Shown here in pieces: positions 19,957-59,245 of a DNA stretch of 64,000 nucleotides (the stretch's first letter is position 1; every line of letters starts with the position of its first letter). The notes under the pieces were generated by a model, which was not told where the DNA came from, made no database searches, and saw only the letters and a list, made by a program, of their open reading frames with translations. A program made the position numbers and the translations under genes. Source of the stretch: Candidatus Poriferihabitaceae bacterium (GTDB taxonomy: Bacteria; Pseudomonadota; Gammaproteobacteria; Arenicellales; Poriferihabitantaceae); NCBI GenBank assembly GCA_965226545.1, contig OZ245364.1, forward strand, positions 1,771,890 through 1,835,889, written 5' to 3'.

Positions 19957-20112
19957 TGCGCTTGCAGTTGGCGCGTCACCGGCGCTTCAGTTTTGCCCGC
20001 CAATGCGGCGGGCAAAACTACCGCTTGGAATCCCAAGGTTGCCAAAAACCCGGACGGTTGCGGCACCCTCTAATTGATTTATTTACTTCACTACTTATTC
20101 GGAGAAAACCGT

Positions 20113-20454
20113 ATGACGAACAAAGAATTCATCGCTTCCGCATGGCGCAATAACTCGCTCGGTCACAAAACCGGTGCAGTCTTTGGTGTTTCGATTAATG
20201 TTTCCGGGCACAACATCCTCGAACAGATACTCGGATTACAAACACCCAACAAAGTCGAATTGCGAATCGATGGTGACTGGGTTTCCATCAATATCACTGA
20301 CACTTTTTGGACAACCTGCCCCGAATGGCGCAAAAAAGAAATCGGCGCTTGGTTAATCGCAAACAAGCGCGACGACTGGGAACTCAACAACCCTACGAAA
20401 ATTCGCGTAACGCATTTAGGCGACAATCGATTCGCGCTTGCGTTTGCTGATTAA
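20113..20454 (+). CDS. hypothetical protein, distant paralogue of the 24479-24802 product
   Basis: A GGAGAA SD precedes the ATG at 20113. The C-terminal motif KRDDWELNNPTKIRVTHLGDNRFAL matches KKWDDNRTPQVMLCHRGDDEFEV in the other ORF. Confidence 0.5.
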   Translation: MTNKEFIASAWRNNSLGHKTGAVFGVSINVSGHNILEQILGLQTPNKVELRIDGDWVSINITDTFWTTCPEWRKKEIGAWLIANKRDDWELNNPTKIRVTHLGDNRFALAFAD

Positions 20455-21910: not shown

Positions 21911-23098
21911 ATGTCCGCCAATAAACCCGCAACGCCGCCGAGCATCCTCGGCTATCGCCGCGAAAATAAACGCGTCGGCATCCGCAATCATGTGGTGATT
22001 TTGCCGCTCGACGATTTATCCAACGCCGCCTGCGAAGCGGTCGCCAACCACATTCACGGCACGATGGCGATACCGCACGCCTATGGTCGGCTGCAATTCG
22101 GCGAGGATTTGCAACTGCACTTCCGCACATTGATTGGCACCGGCGCGAATCCCAACGTGGCGGCGGTGATTGTCATCGGCATCGAGCCGGAATGGACGCA
22201 AGTCATCGTCGACGGCATCGCCGAGAGCGGCAAACCGGTGCGCGGGTTTTCGATTGAACGGCACGGCGACATCAACACGATTGCGATGGCCAGCCGCACG
22301 GCAAAGGAATATGTGCATTGGGCGTCCGAATTGCGTCGCACCGAATGTTCGCTGGCGGATGTTTGGGTGTCGCATAAATGCGGCGAATCCGACACGACTT
22401 CGGGGATTGCGGCCAATCCGACGGTCGGCAATTTCGTCGACAAAACCGACGCCATGGGCGTGACCAACTGTTTCAGCGAAACCTCCGAGATTACCGGCGG
22501 CGAACATTTGTGCCGAGCGCGCGCGATTGATGAAAAAATCGGCGATAAATGGTACGCCACTTGGAAGGCGTACATGGACGAAGTCATCGAGCCGCACAAG
22601 ACTTCCGATTTATCCGACAGCCAGCCGACCAAAGGCAACATCGCCGGCGGCTTGACCACGATTGAAGAAAAGGCGCTCGGCAATTTGCAAAAAATTGGCA
22701 AGCGCGCGAAATATATCGATGTCCTCGAGCCGGCCGAGACTCCGAACAAAGGCGCGGGGTTGTATTTTATGGACACCTCCTCGGCCGCCGCCGAATGCGT
22801 TACGCTCAAAGCCGCCGCCGGGTTTGTCGTGCATTGTTTCCCCACCGGACAAGGCAACATCATCGGCAACCCGATTGAGCCGGTGATTAAAATCACCGCC
22901 AACCCGCGCACCATGCGCACGATGAGCGAACATGTCGATGTCGATGTATCGAAATTGTTGCGCCGCGAGATGAACATGGACGAAGCCGGCGATGCGTTGC
23001 TGGATATGGTGGTGCGCACCTGCAACGGACGATTGACCGCCGCCGAAGCGTTGGGGCATCGTGAGTTTGTGTTGACCAAGTTGTATCGAAGCGCGTAG
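21911..23098 (+). CDS. UxaA-family dehydratase/lyase large subunit; candidate sulfolactate sulfo-lyase SuyB
   Basis: [50 protein letters not shown], typical of the altronate-dehydratase C-terminal domain. The two-subunit split is as in SuyAB. Confidence 0.75.
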
Positions 23099-50129: not shown

Positions 50130-50446
50130 GCCGCGCGCGGCTTCGCTTGGTCGTTGCATTAACGATGTCGCTCGGCGGCGTCGCGCAGGCGGAATACGAT
50201 GCGCACGGTTTATTCATCGCCCCGGGCGGCGAATGGGTCGCCGCGCATTGCACCGTGTGTCACTCGGCGAAGTTAATCATCCAACAAGGCGCAAGTTACG
50301 AAGGCTGGCGCGACATCATCGAATCGATGCAGGATGAACAAGGCTTATGGGAAATTCCGCCGGCGCAACTTGGGGCGATGTTGGATTATCTCGCCGCGCA
50401 TTACGGTGAAGAGCGTCCGCATTGGGGTGGTGGGGTGGCGCAATAA
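50126..50446 (+). CDS. sorB: monohaem cytochrome c subunit (SorB-like)
   Basis: Signal peptide and a CTVCHS haem-binding CxxCH motif. ATGA overlap with sorA. Confidence 0.75.
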   Translation: MSRARLRLVVALTMSLGGVAQAEYDAHGLFIAPGGEWVAAHCTVCHSAKLIIQQGASYEGWRDIIESMQDEQGLWEIPPAQLGAMLDYLAAHYGEERPHWGGGVAQ

Positions 50447-50480
50447 AAAAACCCGCCCGATGCATTGGGCGGGTTTATTA
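50447..50480 (+). terminator. rho-independent terminator after sorB
   Basis: AAACCCGCCC-gatgcatt-GGGCGGGTTT followed by ATT. It is flanked by an A-run, so it may act in both directions. Confidence 0.7.
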
Positions 50481-50607
50481 ATTAACGCTTGGCTTAGGTG
50501 ATGACAAACTCGGTGATTTTGGAATCCGGACCAACTTCGTCTCGGGTGTTGATGTGGCAGGCTTTGGCGAAGGCGATTACATCAACGAGGGGCGGGCGGC
50601 GGGCGGA

Positions 50608-51162
50608 TTAGCCGCGAGATTTCTTTTTGAGCGGTGCGTTGAGAGCCAGTTCATCCAAATGCGAATCGAGTTCGATGAATTTGGAGCAAGTTCTTTTTAG
50701 TTCGGCCGATGTTCGCGCCCAAAAAACGACTTCCACTGTAAAGCCGTCTTTGACCAACATCTCAACCGGCGGGATGAAATCGCCATCGCCGGACACCAAC
50801 AAAATTTTATGGTGTGCGGGGCCGTCGCTAACATAAGCGTCTTTAATCATGTCTTTGACGATGGAGGTATCAACGCCTTTTTCTTTATTGGCGACATTGC
50901 GGTCTCTAATTTCCAATTCAAACCCGGCGGATTTGGCGCGCGCCCACAGCGAATCATTCGGCGGCGGACGCGAACCGACCAACAACGCCCGACCAATCTC
51001 GCCATCACCGTTTTGGGTAACAAAACGGTAGAGTTTGCCAAAATCAATTTTGTAGTTGAGGTCGAGCGTTTTGCCGCTCTTGTCATTTTTCCCAATCGCC
51101 GCCGCAACACGTTGCCCTTCGATAAACAAATTGGAGTTGTCGATATAGATAAACTTTTTCAT
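50608..51162 (-). CDS. NYN-domain (LabA/PIN-like) predicted ribonuclease
   Basis: MKKFIYIDNSNLFIEG.., EKGVDTSIVKDMI, ILLVSGDGDFIPPVE. The start is trimmed to the ATG at 51162. Confidence 0.75.
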   Translation of the reverse strand: MKKFIYIDNSNLFIEGQRVAAAIGKNDKSGKTLDLNYKIDFGKLYRFVTQNGDGEIGRALLVGSRPPPNDSLWARAKSAGFELEIRDRNVANKEKGVDTSIVKDMIKDAYVSDGPAHHKILLVSGDGDFIPPVEMLVKDGFTVEVVFWARTSAELKRTCSKFIELDSHLDELALNAPLKKKSRG

Positions 51163-51200
51163 TGCGTTTACTCTCGTTGATGTTTTGCACGGTGTGGTGT

Positions 51201-51240
51201 AGAAAAACCGCGCACCATTGTTAAGTGGCGGCGCGGTTTT
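51201..51240 (-). terminator. hairpin terminator/attenuator between the small ORF and the NYN gene
   Basis: AAAACCGCGC..17 nt..GCGCGGTTTT, with a U-run on the minus strand. Confidence 0.5.
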
Positions 51241-51245
51241 GGGTG

Positions 51246-51509
51246 TCACTTATCGTCAAGCACGTTGTCCAGTGTTTCCAGATTCAACGGCAATTCTTCC
51301 ATAATTTTGGTGGCGTTATTTTCGGCGCTCCATTCGGAAAAGGCGATAATCATTTCTTTGTTTTTGCATTTTTGTTCGCTGTGTTTGCCGCCATAGTGGT
51401 CGAAGCAGTTTTGGCTGTTAATCGCCCACTTCACCAACACCCCTATGGCGCAGTCGCCCGGATTAATCGGTTTGCGGTCGTAATCGGTTTTAAGGAATTC
51501 ATCGGTCAT
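51246..51509 (-). CDS. hypothetical 87-aa protein upstream of the NYN nuclease
   Basis: A GAGGTG SD lies 6 nt before the ATG at 51509. The product is Cys/His-containing (DCAIGVLVKWAINSQNCFDHYGGKHSEQKC). Confidence 0.5.
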   Translation of the reverse strand: MTDEFLKTDYDRKPINPGDCAIGVLVKWAINSQNCFDHYGGKHSEQKCKNKEMIIAFSEWSAENNATKIMEELPLNLETLDNVLDDK

Positions 51510-51638
51510 TTGGGTCACCTCGTTTGATGTGAAGTCGGAATGGATTTTAACACAAGTGCCGCGCATAAAAAACCGCGCATGTTGTGCGCGGTTATTGGGC
51601 GGCGGTCGGCGATTCTGTTATGGCAAATCGCAGAATCA

Positions 51639-51849
51639 AGCGTTAGCGGTGCCGGCGCAAGCGTTACCGACGCTGTCATTAGCGTTAGTGACGACTCCAT
51701 TAGCGTTACTGACGCTGTCATTAGCGTTAATGGCACTCGATTAGCGTTAGTGACGCCGCCATTAGCGTTAGTGACACCACCGTTAGCGTTAGTGACGACT
51801 CCATTAGCGTTACTGGCGACTCTATTAGCGTTAGTGACGCGGCAAATCG
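51639..51849. repeat. about 10 x 21-bp tandem repeat (AGCGTTAGTGACGNNNCCATT)
   Basis: agcgttaccgacgctgtcatt agcgttagtgacgactccatt agcgttactgacgctgtcatt agcgttaatggcactcgatt agcgttagtgacgccgccatt agcgttagtgacaccaccgtt agcgttagtgacgactccatt agcgttactggcgactctatt ... Confidence 0.9.
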
Positions 51850-52000
51850 CGCTAATTTGACGGGTTTATGCGGGTTTTGGGGGGTGCGGGTGGTGGGGAA
51901 TGGCTTATGTATGCGGTTTTGGGCGAGGGCGGGGTTGGGGGTGCGCCATTTGAGTTTGTTGTTAATTGACTGTTATTGACGGCAAATACCCCACTTTTTG

Positions 52001-52029
52001 TTGACACCGCAGGCAACCGTTGGCAAAAT
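52001..52029 (+). promoter_or_regulatory. candidate sigma70 promoter driving leader A and the outer-membrane barrel gene
   Basis: TTGACA-17 nt-CAAAAT. The conserved leader begins 6 nt downstream. Confidence 0.5.
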
Positions 52030-52035
52030 CCGTTT

Positions 52036-52216
52036 CGCCAATATTTCGGAAAGTAGCCCTTTTGCGGGTTACCCGCTTTAAGTAAACGCAACATTGCTTG
52101 CCTGCGCGAGATTCATTCTCTCGCGGGCATGGACGGTTGTAGCCGCTTTCGCGGTATTGGCAACGGTTCGTCACTTCGGTGGCGGAGATTGTCAATTTTG
52201 TAACCGGAGATTTGAA
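52036..52216 (+). ncRNA. conserved structured 5' leader, copy A (candidate riboswitch or other cis-regulatory RNA)
   Basis: 181 nt. It shares blocks, helices and length with the 183-nt leader at 57049-57231 on the minus strand; see findings. Confidence 0.55.
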
Positions 52217-52837
52217 ATGTTTAAGAAACTTATTGCTGTATCGCTCGCCGCGGTTATGTCGCTTGCTTCGGCAAGTGCGTTGGCGGCGGAAGAGTATTAC
52301 GGGCTCGCTTATTCCAACATCAATTTGAATTTTGACGAATTGTTCGGCAATTCCTACAACACAGGCGATTTTTCGCTTAAAGCCATCGGGCTTACAATTG
52401 GCGAGTTCAGCGACGACAACGATTTCCTTGGCTTCGAGTTTTACATCGGCACCGGCATAGGGGAGACATCCGACGAAGGGGTGTTGAACCCCAACAGTGC
52501 TGCAAATCGTCTCGTTGCCAACCATGACTGGGAGTTAAATTATGCCGGCGGTGCAAGCATTCGGTTTGGCGCATTGCACAGTGACCGAACGGTTAATCCG
52601 TATGCGTTACTCGGTTACCACTGGATGCGCGTGGGCTTTTTGGGTGGCCCCTCCGGTAACACAATTACTGACAGGGATGGGAGCCAAACGGATGAGGTGA
52701 TTCTGGTCGGCACATCGTATGGCATAGGTGTCAACATCGGGCAAGACGATGTTCACTTGGGCCTTAAGTACGTCGGTTACGGCTTTGAATACGTGGAAGC
52801 CAATTCGGTGCAGGCTGAACTCGTTTGGAGTTTTTAA
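52217..52837 (+). CDS. small outer-membrane beta-barrel protein (OmpW/OMP_b-brl-like)
   Basis: Signal peptide MFKKLIAVSLAAVMSLASASALA, alternating beta-strand pattern, and C-terminal ..ELVWSF (terminal Phe). A GGAGA SD is present. Confidence 0.75.
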   Translation: MFKKLIAVSLAAVMSLASASALAAEEYYGLAYSNINLNFDELFGNSYNTGDFSLKAIGLTIGEFSDDNDFLGFEFYIGTGIGETSDEGVLNPNSAANRLVANHDWELNYAGGASIRFGALHSDRTVNPYALLGYHWMRVGFLGGPSGNTITDRDGSQTDEVILVGTSYGIGVNIGQDDVHLGLKYVGYGFEYVEANSVQAELVWSF

Positions 52838-52868
52838 ACACGCACCGACAAACTTCGTTGGTGTAGTT

Positions 52869-52896
52869 GCCCCGTCTGCAGGCGGGGCTTTTTTTT
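52869..52896 (+). terminator. rho-independent terminator after the barrel gene
   Basis: GCCCCG-tctgcagg-CGGGGC followed by TTTTTTTT. Confidence 0.8.
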
Positions 52897-52920
52897 GCAA
52901 CATAATGCTTGGCATAAAGA

Positions 52921-52955
52921 TAAAAAAACGGCGGCAATGTTTCCACTGCCGCCGT
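52921..52955 (-). terminator. rho-independent terminator after the Bor-like gene
   Basis: The minus strand reads ACGGCGGCA-gtggaaacat-TGCCGCCGT followed by TTTTTTT. Confidence 0.8.
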
Positions 52956-52968
52956 CAAGATTGCCGAA

Positions 52969-53274
52969 TTAGTTTCGGCAATACACTCGCGCTTGTTGCG
53001 GCGTGAAAATGCCAAAGGTGATGGCACCAAGCAGACCGTTAATAAACGTGGTTTGCGTTTCCACACGGACAATGTTGTCGTCCCCTCCGCAAATTTCGCC
53101 GGGGTCGATGTTTTTTTGTTGCCCAAGCCCGCTGATGAAATAAGGCTGCGCACGGTCGTAAGTCGCAACCGCCCCATCCGAATTCTCTTGCAGGTTGAAC
53201 TTGGTTTGTGCGCACCCGGCAAGCCAGATGGCACAAAATACTGCAATCACTTTAAAAATGCTTTGGTATTTCAT
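52969..53274 (-). CDS. Bor/Iss-family outer-membrane lipoprotein (phage lambda Bor homologue)
   Basis: Lipobox LAGC. FISGLGQQKNIDPGEICGGDDNIVRVETQTTFINGLLGAITFGIFTPQQARVYC matches, from memory, lambda Bor FVSGIGQKKTVDAAKICGG..VKTETQQTFVNGLLGFITLGIYTPLEARVYC. Confidence 0.8.
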   Translation of the reverse strand: MKYQSIFKVIAVFCAIWLAGCAQTKFNLQENSDGAVATYDRAQPYFISGLGQQKNIDPGEICGGDDNIVRVETQTTFINGLLGAITFGIFTPQQARVYCRN

Positions 53275-53415
53275 TGGAACCTCTACATTGATGAAGATTG
53301 AAATTTGCGGCAAACGCCGCGCGGGTAAAACAAAGGTCAAGGGCGGCGATGTTGCCATTGCCGCCGTGGGTAACTGATTTTGGATGGTGCGTTGGTTGGG
53401 GGTGGTTGAATCGTA

Positions 53416-54741
53416 TTAATCAACGTAGACCCTTACACCGTCCGAGCAATTGTTGGAACGGTCGGTGTCGTCAGTGTCATCCACGCAAGCCCCGTAATAT
53501 TGGGAGCCGCGCCAATAAACTGTAAAGGAATATTGTTCATCGTCAGTTTCCCCGGGAGCGAGCGCATCCACTTCGTCATACCTGCTGAGAGGTGTGTCAC
53601 TCGACGATATGTAGGAGTTGGTCGAACGGTAATATGTGACCCGAGTGTCAAGTGGTGATTTGCCGCCGCCTGAAGCATTGCGGACTGTTACCGTAAGTCT
53701 GAGTGTGCTACCGTAATCCACGGTGTAGTAAGTGGTTGTGCCATTAATTTCAAAATCTTCCGCCACCAAATCCCATTCACTGTCCTTTACGACGACTTTC
53801 ACGCCGGGATTCCGACAATCATTTGTGCCGTCGGAATCGTCGCGGTCGTCCACGCACACGCCATAGTAGTAAGTGCCGGGAGTGTCCGGGGCATCCACAT
53901 CTATGTCTTCGTCGCGATTGCGGCCCGGTGAAATTCTGTAAATTCTGTCAGACCCAACACTGGTATCGCCCCTTGTTATCTCGTCATTTGGCGAACGATA
54001 GTATCTTATCCGGACATAACCATCCCAATCCGCCGTAGAGCCTCGGCTATTTTCGATTGTCGTCGAAAGGGTGATTTCCTCACCCGGATAAGGGTTTACG
54101 TTATCCACCTCAAAGGCGATTGGGCGTAAATCCCATTCGCCTTCTTCTTCGGTCTCGCTCTGCTCTGTAGATGGGGTGCCGCCACCGCCACCGCCGCCGC
54201 CACCGCCGCCGCCCGAGTCACTGGCGGCAGCGTACGAAATGGTTACACCGTAAGCCCCGCCGGGACCGCCCGGTTCACTGACCACACCCAATTTAAAAGT
54301 GGGGGCGCTAGTATCGGCGTTAGCGTAAACAAAACTGAAGTTCGTGCCTGTGCCGCTATTGTCATCGGCAACAAGGCTGTTGCTGAAGTCGCTGAGAACG
54401 TTGTTGGGGTACAGACTGCCGACTGTGTCGGTTGCCCCCGTGCTCCAGACATGAAATTCGCCTGCGCTACCTGACATAGGCCGAAATCGAAACCAATCGA
54501 GGTCGTTGCTACCAAGCACCCCAGTTGCGTAGGCAACGCCGCTACTGGCCCCAACCCAAGTGGCGTATTCATGGTTTTGGCTGTGGTCATCACCAGGGTC
54601 AAGATTGGGGTCAATGACGGCAACATTTTCAGCACCGCCAGAATCGCCGCCACCAGAATCACTGTCGCTACTGCCACTGCTACTGCAAGCAGTAACAGCG
54701 GCGATTGCGAAAATGAGGAAAATAATTTTGAGAAGTTTCAT
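53416..54741 (-). CDS. lipoprotein: PPC (pre-peptidase C-terminal)-like domain, poly-Gly linker, two CARDB-like repeats
   Basis: Lipobox VTAC. The PPC-like region has DLDWFRF..GEFHVWSTGATDT..GAYGVTISY. About 12 Gly follow, then two roughly 115-aa repeats starting EWDL.. and ending ..YYG.CVDD.DD.D..N.C. Confidence 0.7.
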   Translation of the reverse strand: MKLLKIIFLIFAIAAVTACSSSGSSDSDSGGGDSGGAENVAVIDPNLDPGDDHSQNHEYATWVGASSGVAYATGVLGSNDLDWFRFRPMSGSAGEFHVWSTGATDTVGSLYPNNVLSDFSNSLVADDNSGTGTNFSFVYANADTSAPTFKLGVVSEPGGPGGAYGVTISYAAASDSGGGGGGGGGGGGTPSTEQSETEEEGEWDLRPIAFEVDNVNPYPGEEITLSTTIENSRGSTADWDGYVRIRYYRSPNDEITRGDTSVGSDRIYRISPGRNRDEDIDVDAPDTPGTYYYGVCVDDRDDSDGTNDCRNPGVKVVVKDSEWDLVAEDFEINGTTTYYTVDYGSTLRLTVTVRNASGGGKSPLDTRVTYYRSTNSYISSSDTPLSRYDEVDALAPGETDDEQYSFTVYWRGSQYYGACVDDTDDTDRSNNCSDGVRVYVD

Positions 54742-54777
54742 TGCGAGTTGCTCCAAAGTGGTGAATGCACAATTTGG

Positions 54778-55686
54778 CTATTGGCCAGGGCAGGTTAGGC
54801 TGCGACGTATGGTTGCGGCGCCGGGAGTTACGTCATAACAACAACTACTACAACTTTGGTCGCCGTCGATGCCAACGCCCCAGGAAATTGAGGTGCCGCG
54901 AATTTCTGCCCCATAGCAGATGTCGCCTGTGAGACCATCGACATTAAGGGAGACGCCAATGGTGTCGCCGACTGTATTGGCATTGTTCGTTGTGTAGACT
55001 TGGCCACTGGAAGGCCAACTGGCGTACCGAGAACTTACGCTAGATGTGCGGTAAGCGAAAAATCGTGCATTCAACGCCCCGTGAACTGCACAATTGTCAG
55101 TGAGTTCAAAACGCATTCCCGTGTTGCCGCCGCCGCCGCCACCGCCGCCACCACCACCGCCTGAACTGGCATAAGCGTAAGAAACGGTTAAGCCATAAGC
55201 CCCGGTGCTACTGCTGTGACCACGCACCCGTATTCGGAAAGTAACGTTACTGGCGGCTGGGTTGGTGTAAGTAAAACTGAAATTGCTGCTTGAGCCGTCA
55301 TCATCGTCGGACGCAAGGGCTGATGCGGAGGTACTGGAACTGTTGTACATATCACCTAATGTGTCGGTTGACCCGGTGCTCCAGACGTGCATTGTTCCCG
55401 CACTACCTGCCGGAACCCAAAATCCAAACCAATCTTCGTCACCAGACACCTCAATGTTGCCGCTTGCGCGGCCAACATTGCCGCTGAAGACTACTGCTGA
55501 GGTGTATCGACGGTTGTTGCTGTGGTCATCGCCGGCACCAAGATTGGGGTCGATGGTGGCGACGCTATTCCCAGCGCCGCCGCCACCGCCACTGCTTGAA
55601 TCACTGCTACCACCACTGCTACTACAACCAGCAACAGCGGCGGCTAACAGCGCAATGAGAATAAGATTGATAATTTTCATTGTCAT
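54778..55686 (-). CDS. lipoprotein: paralogous PPC-like domain, poly-Gly linker, Cys-rich C-terminal domain
   Basis: Lipobox VAGC. DEDWFGFWVPAGSAGTMHVWSTGSTDT..GAYGLTVSY is collinear with the 53416 product. 12 Gly follow, then an unrelated 120-aa Cys-containing domain. Confidence 0.7.
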   Translation of the reverse strand: MTMKIINLILIALLAAAVAGCSSSGGSSDSSSGGGGGAGNSVATIDPNLGAGDDHSNNRRYTSAVVFSGNVGRASGNIEVSGDEDWFGFWVPAGSAGTMHVWSTGSTDTLGDMYNSSSTSASALASDDDDGSSSNFSFTYTNPAASNVTFRIRVRGHSSSTGAYGLTVSYAYASSGGGGGGGGGGGGNTGMRFELTDNCAVHGALNARFFAYRTSSVSSRYASWPSSGQVYTTNNANTVGDTIGVSLNVDGLTGDICYGAEIRGTSISWGVGIDGDQSCSSCCYDVTPGAATIRRSLTCPGQ

Positions 55687-55695
55687 TCCCCCAAA

Positions 55696-57048
55696 TCAAA
55701 GCGCGTCAACGCGCACCGCAACCTTGCGGACAACATTCATCTCACCGTTAAAAAGAAGTTGCGCAGTAACAACCGCACTAACCTCACCGGCGGGGATAAC
55801 AACATCAATCGGCGTAGCGTCAAAATCGACGCCGGCAACGGCGGCGTTTTCGACATTGGGGGAAACCAAACGCACTTGCAGAGGCGTATCGGCGGATGCA
55901 ACTTGCGGCAAGGTAACCTCGATATCCAAAGTGCCGCCGTTGCCGGTGCGCTTTTGCAAAAATTGCGCGGTGATGCCGTTGGCTTGGGTGAACACTTGCG
56001 GGGTAACTTCGCGCCGCGACACTTCGATTCTGCCGTCTGAAGTAATCGGTGCAAAATCATCGTTGCCGGCGAAACTGCGCGAGGTGAAATTCAATTGCGG
56101 CTTGCCTTTGGCGGTGCGCCCATTGCCAAACAGATATTTGTAACTCACAAGCGCGCCAAAATCGCCGTCGTTGCCGATGCCGCCAAGCCGCAATCCATAC
56201 AAGCCATTGGTGCGCGGCGATTGATAATCCAGACCAAGTTGTGCGGAAGTTACAAAATCGCCGCTGCCGTCGGTGCGTTCGCTATGCGTGAAGGCGATAT
56301 TGCCGATGGCGGTTTTGCTGAATACGCGATTGACCGAGAGGACGGTTTTTTCAATCGGGCGTTCGTAATAATCGCCGACAATGCGCTCATCGCTAAGCGG
56401 CATAAAATGTTCGATTTGGAATGCATTGGCGTTGTAAATCCGTTCGAATCCCAAGCGAAGACGGCGGTGACCGTATTCGGCGTTTTCCTGTCCATACGCC
56501 CAAAACCCCGAGCGTTGATAATTCGCGCCATTGGTTTCGCCAAAACGGAATACGCCGCCATAACGCAAATCGTTGCGGTCGATATTGGCGGAATCTTGAT
56601 AGCGGGTGTTGCCGAATTGCAAAAACAGTGCGCGGCTTGCATTTGGATTGGCGGACGCCGCCAAAGACAGCGGCATAACGGCATCCAAATCACCGGCAAT
56701 GCCGCGCTCGTCGTCATACTGCAACGACGAATGCGCGCGCATATCTTGTCCGGTTAACCGGTTTGCAAGTGCAATCGCTTTATTTGCACCGGCGGAAAAT
56801 GCAACGCGGCTTATGCTTTGTTGCAGTTTGCGCCCCGCCGTTTCAAGCGTTTGCTCAATCGCTTGTTCGGCATCGTCGGCATCGGCAAACGAAGACGACA
56901 TTTGCAAAATGCCAAGCGGAAGTTTTGTTACCTCTTGGGTAATTAAATCGCGAATCAAAACGCCGTCTTGTGCAGAAACACTGTGGGTGACGGCCATGCC
57001 ACTGAATGCAATGCACCAAGCGGCACAAATGCGGGTAATGCGTTTCAT
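55696..57048 (-). CDS. inverse-autotransporter (intimin/invasin-type) beta-barrel protein with a short Calx-beta-like passenger
   Basis: Signal peptide MKRITRICAAWCIAFSGMAVTHSVSA. Barrel motifs LFLQFGNTRY, YGHRRLRLGFERIY.....IEHFMPLSDE....DYYERP parallel intimin HRRWGLG.E.....L..N.Y..LSGW....DYEERPA. The C-terminal roughly 100 aa has AGVDFD...VVIPAGE (Calx-beta-like). Confidence 0.65.
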   Translation of the reverse strand: MKRITRICAAWCIAFSGMAVTHSVSAQDGVLIRDLITQEVTKLPLGILQMSSSFADADDAEQAIEQTLETAGRKLQQSISRVAFSAGANKAIALANRLTGQDMRAHSSLQYDDERGIAGDLDAVMPLSLAASANPNASRALFLQFGNTRYQDSANIDRNDLRYGGVFRFGETNGANYQRSGFWAYGQENAEYGHRRLRLGFERIYNANAFQIEHFMPLSDERIVGDYYERPIEKTVLSVNRVFSKTAIGNIAFTHSERTDGSGDFVTSAQLGLDYQSPRTNGLYGLRLGGIGNDGDFGALVSYKYLFGNGRTAKGKPQLNFTSRSFAGNDDFAPITSDGRIEVSRREVTPQVFTQANGITAQFLQKRTGNGGTLDIEVTLPQVASADTPLQVRLVSPNVENAAVAGVDFDATPIDVVIPAGEVSAVVTAQLLFNGEMNVVRKVAVRVDAL

Positions 57049-57231
57049 CGTAATGCTCCGAATGAGATTGGCAACCCCCGACACCGAAGTGTCGGGCCTT
57101 TGCCAATATCACGGAAAGCAGAGTGAAATCCCCGCCTATTCGCACCACGCGAGCAGGACTCGCGCGGCGAAAAAACGCTGTTGTATTTGGCGGGTAACCC
57201 GACCAAGGGCTACTTTCCGGAAATATTGGCG
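57049..57231 (-). ncRNA. conserved structured 5' leader, copy B (candidate riboswitch or other cis-regulatory RNA)
   Basis: 183 nt on the minus strand, between the predicted -10 and the inverse-autotransporter ATG. Homologous to 52036-52216. Confidence 0.55.
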
Positions 57232-57237
57232 AGGCGG

Positions 57238-57266
57238 AATATACAAAACAAAACCGACAACCGCAA
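57238..57266 (-). promoter_or_regulatory. candidate sigma70 promoter driving leader B and the inverse-autotransporter operon
   Basis: The minus strand reads TTGCGG-17 nt-TATATT. The conserved leader begins 6 nt downstream, the same geometry as copy A. Confidence 0.5.
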
Positions 57267-57277
57267 GCGAAAAATCG

Positions 57278-57301
57278 AAAAAAAAAGCGGCTTTCGCCGC
57301 T
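57278..57301 (-). terminator. rho-independent terminator after mutL
   Basis: The minus strand reads AGCGGC-gaaa-GCCGCT followed by TTTTTTTTT. Confidence 0.8.
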
Positions 57302-57343
57302 AATCGCCCAAGCCAAAATCAACCAAACACCCAACCAACAACC

Positions 57344-59245
57344 TCACCGCCCCCGCATAAACCATTTATCAATCTCCCCAAGCGAAACCCGCATCCAAGT
57401 CGGGCGACCGTGATTGCATTGTCCGGCGCGTTCGACTTGTTCCATTTGGCGCAACAGCGCATTCATTTCGATGTGGGTGAGTTTGCGGTTGGCGCGAATC
57501 GAGCCGTGGCAGGCGGCGGTCGATAAAATTTCATGTTGCGCGTTTTCGATTCGTTGGCTGCTGCCGTGCGCGATTAAATCGGCGAGTGCATCGCGAATCA
57601 ATTCGGCGATATCCAAATTGGCGAGCAATTCCGGCGCGGCGCGGATGATGAGTTGTTCGTCGCCGACCATCTCCATATCAAAACCAATCTCGTTAAATTG
57701 CGCGCCAAACAGCATAGCGGCTTCGGCTTCATCCGGGTTGACGACCACGGCAATCGGCACCAACAACGGTTGACTGGACGGATTTTTTTCGCCCGCTTGG
57801 CGTTTTAAGGTTTCATAAGTAATGCGTTCATGCGCGGCATGCATATCGACCATCACCAAACCATCGGCGTTTTCGGCGAGGATGTACGCGCCTTTAAGTT
57901 GCGCCAATGCATACCCCATCGGCGGAATTTCCGCGCCGTCAGTTTCGACCCAAGCGTCGCCCATCGATTCGCGCGAAGCATTATCGACGCCGCCAACATT
58001 GCCGGCGAATGCATCGGCTGAGCGATGTAACTCACCGTAAGGTTGCAGTTGCTCGGCAACCGACAGATGATGTTGGCGATGATTGGTTGGATAGAAAAAT
58101 GGTTTTGATGATGACGGTGACGACGGTGACAGTGACTGTGCCGACGCCGCCAACGCCGCATCAGGTGTCGGCAGATTAACCGCGCCATCGCCGACTGCAA
58201 GGTTGGCGATAACTCGATGCAGCGTTCGATAAATATAATCCTGCACCGCGCGCATCTCGCGAAATCTGACTTCGGTTTTTGCCGGATGCACATTAACATC
58301 GACCAAGTTCGGCGCAATTTGCAAAAACAACACAAACGCCGGATGCCGTCCGTGATACAGCACATCGTTATAAGCGCGGCGCACCGCATGCGCGATTAAA
58401 TAATCGCGCACCGCGCGTTGATTAACAAAAAAATGCTGCATGTCGCGTTGGCTGCGCGAGAAAGTCGGCAAACCAATCCACCCTTGCAACTGCAATGCAC
58501 CGGCATGGTCGTCGACGGCGACACTTTGTTCGGCAAACGGCGCGCCGCAAATCGCCGCCAACCGCGCGCGGCGTTGTGCATCATCATTGGCGGCGCGCGC
58601 GTGAAACAGCGTTTTGCCGTCGTGGGCGAATTCGATTTCGATTTGTTCATGCGCCAATGCGATGCGGCGCACGACTTCCTGCATGTATTTTAATTCGGTG
58701 CGTTCGCTGCGCATAAACTTGCGCCGCGCCGGCGTGTTGTAAAACAACTCGGCGACTTCAATCGTCGTGCCCGGCGGATGTGCCGCGGGTTTGAGTTCGC
58801 CGAATTGTCCGCCGTCGCAGGTGATACTGCAGGCGTGTGCGGCATCGGCGATGCGCGAGGTTAATGTCAAACGCGACACGGCGGCGATGCTCGGCAAGGC
58901 TTCGCCGCGAAAACCGAGCGTGGTGATGTTGTATAAATCGTCGAAGCGATTTAGTTTGCTGGTGGCGTGGCGCGACAATGCAAGCCGCGCGTCGACTTCG
59001 GCGATGCCGCCGCCGTTGTCCTGCACGACCACGCGCTTAAAGCCGCCGCTTTCGGTTCGTATGCGAATGTGGGTTGCGCCGGCGTCGACGCTGTTTTCCA
59101 ATAATTCCTTTAACAACGACGCCGGGCGTTCAATCACTTCGCCGGCGGCGATTTGATTGATGAGTTTGTCATCCAACTGCACAATTCCACCACGCGCGGA
59201 TGCGGGCGGGGCGACGGATTGGGCGGCGGTGCGCGACATTGGCAA
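57344..59245 (-). CDS. mutL: DNA mismatch repair protein MutL
   Basis: LINQIAAGEVIERPASLLKELLENSVDAGA (GHKL N-box), DNGGGI, LGFRGEAL, and a C-terminal dimerisation domain. Confidence 0.95.
   Translation of the reverse strand: MPMSRTAAQSVAPPASARGGIVQLDDKLINQIAAGEVIERPASLLKELLENSVDAGATHIRIRTESGGFKRVVVQDNGGGIAEVDARLALSRHATSKLNRFDDLYNITTLGFRGEALPSIAAVSRLTLTSRIADAAHACSITCDGGQFGELKPAAHPPGTTIEVAELFYNTPARRKFMRSERTELKYMQEVVRRIALAHEQIEIEFAHDGKTLFHARAANDDAQRRARLAAICGAPFAEQSVAVDDHAGALQLQGWIGLPTFSRSQRDMQHFFVNQRAVRDYLIAHAVRRAYNDVLYHGRHPAFVLFLQIAPNLVDVNVHPAKTEVRFREMRAVQDYIYRTLHRVIANLAVGDGAVNLPTPDAALAASAQSLSPSSPSSSKPFFYPTNHRQHHLSVAEQLQPYGELHRSADAFAGNVGGVDNASRESMGDAWVETDGAEIPPMGYALAQLKGAYILAENADGLVMVDMHAAHERITYETLKRQAGEKNPSSQPLLVPIAVVVNPDEAEAAMLFGAQFNEIGFDMEMVGDEQLIIRAAPELLANLDIAELIRDALADLIAHGSSQRIENAQHEILSTAACHGSIRANRKLTHIEMNALLRQMEQVERAGQCNHGRPTWMRVSLGEIDKWFMRGR

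Follow-up and report, generated by a model that had tools for sequence, protein, structure and literature searches.

Translational riboswitches, such as the add adenine riboswitch of Vibrio, have expression platforms in which an alternative helix uses the 3' strand of P1. The 5' leader analyzed here resembles the add type in several respects. A domain at the 5' end of the mRNA is closed by P1, the 3' strand of P1 overlaps a competing helix by 6 nt just upstream of the Shine-Dalgarno (SD) sequence, and P1 is predicted to form first during transcription. It differs from the add type in that the leader has no Rfam aptamer match, the competing helix excludes the SD, a conserved anti-SD or terminator was not found and natural variants dispense with the inner domain.

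A second described system is the 5' UTR of E. coli ompA, a 5'-terminal stem-loop that stabilizes the mRNA. The present leader is likewise long and structured and belongs to a gene for a secreted or outer-membrane protein, with a helix 0-2 nt from the predicted 5' end and a second hairpin near the ribosome binding site. However, the two have no sequence similarity, the multi-helix domain of the present leader is much larger and has an alternative pairing, and a stabilizing effect is here putative. A third comparison is with the orphan riboswitch candidates and Rfam 'Cis-reg' motifs of the Weinberg/Breaker type, which were found by comparative genomics. Like these motifs, the present leader is defined by stems that covary and junctions that are conserved, and it stands before a coherent class of genes. 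Unlike them, the leader matches no curated family, comes from one group of co-occurring strains in one metagenome sample, and has modular deletion variants.

The leader is a real, lineage-specific, structured cis-acting 5' RNA that is undescribed in Rfam. The best single explanation for it is a two-state conformational switch, which we put forward tentatively, at a little under an even chance, and for which we infer the trigger, the output and the population of both folds in vivo.

Leader copies and neighbouring genes

Two copies of the leader lie in the 64-kb window (the whole stretch of DNA analyzed, 64,000 nucleotides). The predicted transcript of the copy B leader is about 180 nt long and runs on the minus strand from ~57232 to 57049. 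Its promoter (57266-57238, minus strand), recognized from the sequence, consists of a -35-like TTGCGG (57266-57261), a 17-nt spacer and the -10 box TATATT (57243-57238), with a 7-nt gap between the -10 box and the 5' arm of P1. A consensus promoter scan did not list this promoter because its -35 is weak. A preliminary description of this DNA had taken the interval 57049-57266 as the leader; the leader does lie inside it, but both promoter elements are inside as well. At the 3' end (57066-57046, minus strand) a linker, CUCAUUC, is followed by the SD GGAG (57059-57056), a spacer and the AUG at 57048-57046, three bases further 3' than the start codon at 57051 that had been implied. The long stem of the 3' hairpin, formerly placed about 20 nt before the SD, in fact ends 7 nt short of the SD, with 18 nt between its base and the AUG.

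The gene behind the copy B leader (55696-57048, minus strand) encodes a 450-aa secreted protein with a signal peptide and without a Pfam match. Its single homologue (44% identity; L004, 6283-7608) is on a low-coverage contig of the metagenome sample described below, and the sequence upstream of that homologue has no related leader. The two following genes of the operon (54778-55686 and 53416-54756) each encode a secreted protein or lipoprotein, the latter with a CARDB domain. Upstream of copy B lies mutL (57344-59245) with a terminator of its own (57301-57286). A 53-codon ORF with a TTG start (57045-57206, minus strand) spans the leader and ends in an AUGA overlap with the start codon of the gene. 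It was considered as a leader peptide and is unlikely to be one, since its frame and length are unconserved in the other variants; no conserved uORF was found among the leader variants.

A blastn search of the window with the copy B leader gave a match at 52029-52196, with 70.6% identity over 177 nt. This is the copy A leader (52035-52216, plus strand). It is preceded by a sigma-70 promoter at 52001-52029 (plus strand; TTGACA, 17 nt, CAAAAT, with a TG upstream of the -10 and 10 of 12 consensus matches), and its SD, GGAG, is at 52206-52209. The gene behind it (52217-52837, plus strand, ATG at 52217) encodes a 206-aa outer-membrane beta-barrel protein (PF13505), for which a homologue search found none. 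Just upstream of the copy A promoter, at 51660-51840, is a 21-bp tandem repeat (consensus AGCGTTAGTGACGCTCCATT, 8.7 copies, 77% matches). Copies A (plus strand) and B (minus strand) are inverted relative to each other and bracket a 5.2-kb segment (52036-57230) made up of two convergent transcription units, the outer-membrane protein gene on one side and on the other the three-gene secreted-protein operon together with a Bor-like lipoprotein gene (52969-53358). No third copy was found in the 64-kb window, either with a covariance model of the 3' hairpin (R1, filters off) or with an nhmmer profile. One weak match, at 22093-22175, lies within coding sequence and was rejected.

Leader variants in related strains

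Relatives were reached through variants of MutL, 94-99% identical proteins that are encoded on many contigs of the ENA sample ERZ25073868. Ten MutL loci were fetched, with the region downstream of mutL examined for L009-L011 and L014-L019, and eight further leader variants were obtained. All of these comparative sequences come from closely related strains of one lineage in one metagenome sample.

Between mutL and a gene for a molybdenum oxidoreductase lies an island that differs from strain to strain; in the window it extends over ~50130-57340. Its gene sets vary among the ten co-assembled relatives and include secreted ankyrin-repeat, DUF4189, CARDB, outer-membrane and TbpB-like proteins. An IS1595 transposase is present in the island of one relative and an HNH gene in one. 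The island is flanked by dsr genes, and the nearest named MutL relatives are from uncultured Gammaproteobacteria, one of them a Candidatus genus associated with sponges (57% identity). On these two grounds the organism would be a sulfur oxidizer that is probably host-associated.

The promoter-leader unit precedes differing genes for secreted or surface proteins of the island (ankyrin-repeat, DUF4189 and outer-membrane). Full-length leaders are found in L018 and in L014, which is the same as L017. The other variants are shorter. L016b has P1, P1b and P2 alone, with a reduced inner domain; in L011 and L015 the inner domain is missing and P1 encloses just 26 nt; L010 and L016a have the long hairpin alone, directly behind its own promoter, and both P1 and the inner domain are missing. 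The inner "aptamer" domain is thus absent or truncated in L016b, L011/L015 and L010, which precede the same gene families. All ten leader instances have the same orientation and lie between a sigma-70-type -10 box and an SD and AUG. In eight leader variants P1 begins 6-7 nt after the conserved -10 box, which places the predicted 5' end of the mRNA within the helix. No variant leaves its 5'-terminal nucleotides unpaired; P1 pairs them, except in L010, where the long hairpin does so.

In L016 the mutL-proximal promoter (TTGATTTTGG...GCATAAT) and a shortened leader are duplicated inside the island (20090-20240), after an HNH gene, which suggests that promoter and leader form a portable unit.

Helices of the leader and their covariation

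Compared with shuffled sequence, the folding z-score is -5.5 for copy B and -3.8 for copy A. P1 in copy B (minus strand, as are all copy B positions given below) is an 8-bp helix between GCCAAUAU (57230-57223) and AUAUUGGC (57109-57102), with double changes at 4 of its 8 positions. The preliminary description had proposed this closure of the 5' end on a downstream segment, and the pairing is present and strongly supported by covariation. The extension that it gave as CGGAAAG/CUUUCCG is also present (within 57219-57210 and 57121-57112), but the comparative data show the true helix, P1b, to be 10 bp long, formed by CGGAAAGUAG (57219-57210) and CUGCUUUCCG (57121-57112). The closed domain, estimated at about 125 nt, spans 129 nt.

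The inner domain (57209-57131) contains P2, P3, P4 and their junctions, all of which are in the minimum-free-energy fold of a transcript begun at the predicted start site. P2 pairs CCC (57209-57207) with GGG (57200-57198). P3 pairs CCCGCC (57194-57189) with GGCGGG (57136-57131) and has double changes at 2 of 6 positions, while the P4 hairpin (57169-57159 with 57153-57143, loop UCCUG) has them at 9 of 11. The junctions are AAAUACAACAGCGUU... (57188-57170) and CGAAUA (57142-57137). Partly conserved junction sequences (AAUACAACAGCGUU, GCRAAUAGGC and UUCAC) are common to copy B, L014 and L018; the junctions of L018 and L014 are 78-84% identical to those of copy B, and those of copy A 57%. In copy A, P1 is formed by GCCAAUA (52037-52043) and UAUUGGC (52155-52161) and P1b, weaker than in copy B, by 52047-52054 and 52145-52153, all on the plus strand. 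P2 and the P4 hairpin (52099-52129, plus strand) are present there, and P3 is organized differently from that of copy B.

Covariation was assessed on an alignment (A5) of helix strands concatenated without gaps and assembled by hand from fixed anchor points. In this alignment, which leans towards structure, P1, P1b and the inner UUCG hairpin are 96.5% paired and 12 of the 26 pairs are changed on both sides. P1 and P1b account for double changes in 10 of 18 pairs and the inner hairpin stem for double changes in 2 pairs. For these helices, all of the measures lay beyond what any of 500 shuffles reached, and sliding the partner strand by one to three columns reduces pairing to 28-43%. P1b is perfectly complementary over its 10 bp in sequences as unlike as CGGAAAGUAG, UGGAAAGUUG, CAAACCGUAG and CAGAGCGUAG. 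The helices contain 22 G.U pairs versus 4 A.C mismatches, and this excess indicates that the sense strand is the folding molecule. MAFFT alignments (A4 and A6) mis-register P1 and P1b, which is why RNAalifold run on A6 gave the hairpin fold alone.

The whole window has no match in Rfam 15 at gathering thresholds. Copy B, copy A and L018, scanned permissively (E<=10) against 4227 families, gave chance matches alone, at 15 bits or less and with E of at least 1.3.

The palindrome noticed earlier near the start of the transcript exists as a sequence, UUUCCGGAAA in copy B and UUUCGGAAA in copy A. In copy B it occupies 57223-57214, beginning with the final base of P1, crossing the junction to P1b and taking in six bases at the start of the P1b 5' strand. 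A repressor operator at this site had been offered as the alternative to an RNA element, and this proposal fails on the comparison of variants: the palindrome is absent from L014 (UUUUUGGAAAG), L018 (UCUUCAAACCG) and L016b (CUUCAGAGCG), in which P1b pairing is kept by double changes. The sequence TTTCCGGAAA occurs in copy B only, with TTTCGGAAA, TTTTTGGAAAG, TCTTCAAACCG and CTTCAGAGCG at the equivalent positions of copy A, L014, L018 and L016b, respectively. As an operator it was rejected, being unconserved and identical with the covarying 5' strand of P1b.

Competing helices

Between the closed domain and the 3' hairpin is a segment, AUAUUGGCAA (57109-57100), that belongs to two helices: 57109-57102 is the 3' strand of P1 and 57107-57100 the 5' strand of the hairpin extension. 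The 3' hairpin module follows at 57099-57067, with an internal loop AGG, the stem strand CCCGACAC (57096-57089), a UUCG loop, the strand GUGUCGGG (57084-57077), GG, and the 3' arm UUGCCAAU (57074-57067). Pairing of AUUGGCAA (57107-57100) with this arm lengthens the CCCGACAC-UUCG-GUGUCGGG hairpin. That the P1 segment could pair downstream in this way was already seen in the preliminary description; the pairing was confirmed here, and the long 3' hairpin proved to be a conserved element. Copy A retains both options, as had also been stated, with GCCAAUA/UAUUGGC for P1 and AUUGGCAA (52156-52163) with UUGUCAAU (52189-52196, plus strand) for the extension, which includes one G.U pair. Its inner stem is UUCGUCAC-UUCG-GUGGCGGA, and the hairpin is followed by the tail UUUUG.

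Six nucleotides (57107-57102) are common to the 3' strand of P1 and the extension's 5' strand, and each of the four full-length variants has this overlap. P1 and the hairpin extension therefore cannot coexist, as the earlier claim of mutually exclusive helices required. The overlapped core, GCCAA/UUGGC, is almost invariant, while P1 positions 6-8 and the whole of P1b vary, a pattern that fits a double constraint on the core. All four full-length variants retain the whole extension (7-8 bp), next to a linker that diverges freely, and among these variants the 3' arm has a single variable site (C/U). In L014 a G-to-A change in the shared segment is matched by a U in each of its two partner strands, the 5' arm and the 3' arm. 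In L010/L016a the extension exists without P1 and has undergone a compensatory swap of G-C to C-G. RNAalifold on an unsupervised alignment returned the hairpin fold, in which the extension pair that varies in L014 is represented by GC twice, AU twice and GU once. Taken by itself, however, the extension covaries weakly: pairing in its outer stem is 82.8%, a single pair is changed on both sides, and the observed value is equalled in 43-67 of 500 shuffles. It has decayed in L016b and L011/L015, where P1 stays. Since L010 keeps the extension without P1, each fold can occur without the other, before the same gene families.

Predicted probabilities of the P1 and hairpin pairs in four variants are 0.75/0.24, 0.13/0.52, 0.12/0.87 and 1.0/0.0; the equilibria thus differ widely, and L018 is predicted to be wholly in the P1 fold. 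In nearest-neighbour predictions at 37 C, the gap in ensemble energy between the folds is 0.9-1.3 kcal/mol for copies A, B and L014 and 6.0 kcal/mol for L018, and the findpath barriers between them are 13-24 kcal/mol. The predictions do not make all of the leaders bistable. In prefix folding, P1 has formed before the 3' arm is transcribed in three of the four variants. An RNA thermometer is unlikely, as no consistent temperature trend was predicted from 5 to 45 C.

For an output, two kinds of element were considered, a terminator and an anti-SD, and neither is conserved among the variants. The predicted accessibility of the SD drops in the hairpin fold from 0.38-0.67 to 0.14-0.24 in copy B, L014, L017 and L018; the effect is reversed in copy A. 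The 3' strand of P1b (CUGCUUUCCG) is predicted to act as an anti-SD in the alternative fold of copy B. The complementarity of this strand to the SD is above that of shuffled controls in L014 and L017 only, and is at the level of chance in four of six leaders, including copy B. The riboswitch or attenuator logic first read into this leader stands as to a structured leader, its closure by P1 and the exclusive helices, but lacks a conserved output, strong covariation of the extension and an indispensable inner domain.

Proposed mechanism

The two-state switch that we tentatively favour would operate as follows. Transcription would begin 0-2 nt before P1, at the predicted start site. In the nascent RNA an 18-bp bipartite stem, P1 plus P1b, would close the three-helix domain of P2, P3 and P4 and bury the 5' end, and the UUCG hairpin would form after this closure. 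The emerging 3' arm UUGCCAAU may then invade P1 by pairing with the shared UUGGCAA, which would lengthen the hairpin to ~16 bp, expose the 5' end and dissolve the closed domain. The balance of the two folds would set the expression of the downstream gene. The P1 fold would protect the 5' end and leave ~15 nt before the SD unpaired. The hairpin fold would expose the 5' end and place the end of a rigid stem 7 nt from the SD, which is predicted to be paired in most variants. The trigger could be a small molecule, a protein, an sRNA or the kinetics of folding.

If the two folds do make a working switch, it would be an RNA control device new to Rfam, carried by a portable promoter-plus-leader unit on strain-variable secreted proteins of a lineage that is uncultured. 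Ankyrin-repeat, DUF4189, outer-membrane beta-barrel and CARDB proteins are, in symbionts, usually assumed to mediate contact with the host. A true switch would provide a handle on the timing of expression of secreted genes and a new orphan RNA to de-orphanise. Even if it is static, the leader shows clearly how a natural 5' leader can be built from modules, with a conserved hairpin, a stem that closes the structure and an inner domain that may be left out, and be exchanged among gene cassettes.

Alternative explanations

The main rival to the switch is a static structured leader, a serious reading that we nevertheless regard as doubtful. The domain closed by P1 and P1b would stabilize or insulate the 5' end, and the UUCG hairpin would be a separate element for protein binding or processing. 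The pairing of the 3' arm with the 3' strand of P1 would then be a relic with no regulatory role, the 5' arm having been duplicated from the 3' arm, and the 5' arm of L016b (UUGCCAA) does have the same sequence as the canonical 3' arm. A static leader would also suit the pairing of the 5'-terminal nucleotides in every variant, the predicted dominance of P1 in copy B, L018, L016b and L011 when folded from the predicted start site, and the decay of the extension in L016b and L011/L015. The hairpin, moreover, is conserved in sequence as well as structure. It is the best-conserved part of the leader (96% identity to L018 and to L014; 81.9 bits with model R1), and this conservation of sequence hints at sequence-specific recognition by a protein or nuclease. 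However, a relic does not readily explain a 3' arm that stays complementary over 7-8 bp in all four full-length variants despite a divergent linker, or a shared core more conserved than the remainder of P1. The L014 change that suits both partner strands and the compensatory swap by which L010 keeps the extension also argue against a pairing without function.

A metabolite or second-messenger riboswitch is a narrower form of switch, in which the P1-closed domain would be an aptamer, a ligand would stabilize P1 and the extension would be the expression platform. It would amount to a new riboswitch class switching on secreted ankyrin-repeat, DUF4189 and outer-membrane proteins, the presumed host-interaction factors of this uncultured gammaproteobacterium, and we consider it unlikely. 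The multi-helix domain of ~129 nt, with its covarying stems and partly conserved junctions in copy B, L014 and L018, is what an aptamer might look like, the alternative helix overlaps the 3' strand of P1, and the downstream genes form a coherent secreted or surface class. On the other hand, none of the 4227 Rfam families matches, even at E<=10, and natural variants before the same gene families dispense with the domain. Junction conservation falls to 57% in the paralogue, copy A, with its differently organized P3; a conserved terminator or SD-sequestering output was not found; and the motif is known from a single lineage.

It is less plausible still that the leader is a transcription attenuator, in which the long hairpin would be an intrinsic terminator blocked when P1 holds the shared segment; this we judge very improbable. 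UUUUG follows the hairpin of copy A, and UUUGUUUUUAAUUUAUU comes directly after the inner hairpin in L011/L015. However, a terminator scan calls the hairpin in neither copy, the tails are poor in U in copy B (CUCAUUC), L014 (CGUCGAUU) and L018 (CUCAAUUG), the U-tract of L011 follows the inner stem, which P1 does not touch, and a conserved leader peptide is absent.

A DNA-level element, whether an operator at TTTCCGGAAA or a recombination site or MITE-like inverted repeat marking cassette boundaries, is barely credible, for although copy B has the palindrome, copies A and B are mutually inverted and the leader lies at the edge of strain-variable gene cassettes with its promoter-leader unit duplicated within the L016 island, the palindrome is unconserved while its pairing partner covaries, the stems have wholly different sequences from one variant to the next, which sites of transposases or recombinases do not, G.U exceeds A.C (22 against 4) in a strand-specific way, all copies are oriented and placed alike with respect to the promoter and ribosome binding site, and no recombinase gene is adjacent in the window. 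A site like the attC of integrons is also unlikely, since the R''/R' core motifs are absent (by eye) and there is no integrase nearby.

Searches in other genomes and related elements of the island

Representative genomes, JGI metagenomes and viral contigs were scanned with the pattern GGAAAGTAGCCC-N4-10-GGGTTAC(C). These scans gave chance matches alone, with a pattern so narrow that it misses even L014 and L018, and they are thus no proof of absence elsewhere. A viral scan with AATACAACAGCGTT gave 120 chance matches, none of which was confirmed by nhmmer, and blastn of plasmids and phages gave no match.

Several further hairpins were seen in the islands of the relatives. A third, looser type of leader precedes an ankyrin-repeat gene in L014 (13960-14016), L016 (17024-17080) and L010 (15678-15734); its hairpin is related, CCCCCGACAC-AAAAGA-GUGUCGAGGG, and is flanked by UUGGCAAU. 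Intergenic hairpins, followed by a near-identical ribosome binding site and start block, GGAGAAUUGAAAUGA, occur in L010 (13835-13900 and 15133-15202), L014 (13415-13484) and L016 (16479-16548). They lie between island genes and are weak matches to the hairpin model, with E values of 0.18-1.5. In L011 (5386-5440) and L015 (11985-12040) the conserved hairpin runs directly into UUUGUUUUUAAUUUAUU, a terminator-like arrangement ~30 nt before the DUF4189 gene. In L015, a circular genome at 738x coverage, two substitutions (AAC to UAU) break the hairpin extension.
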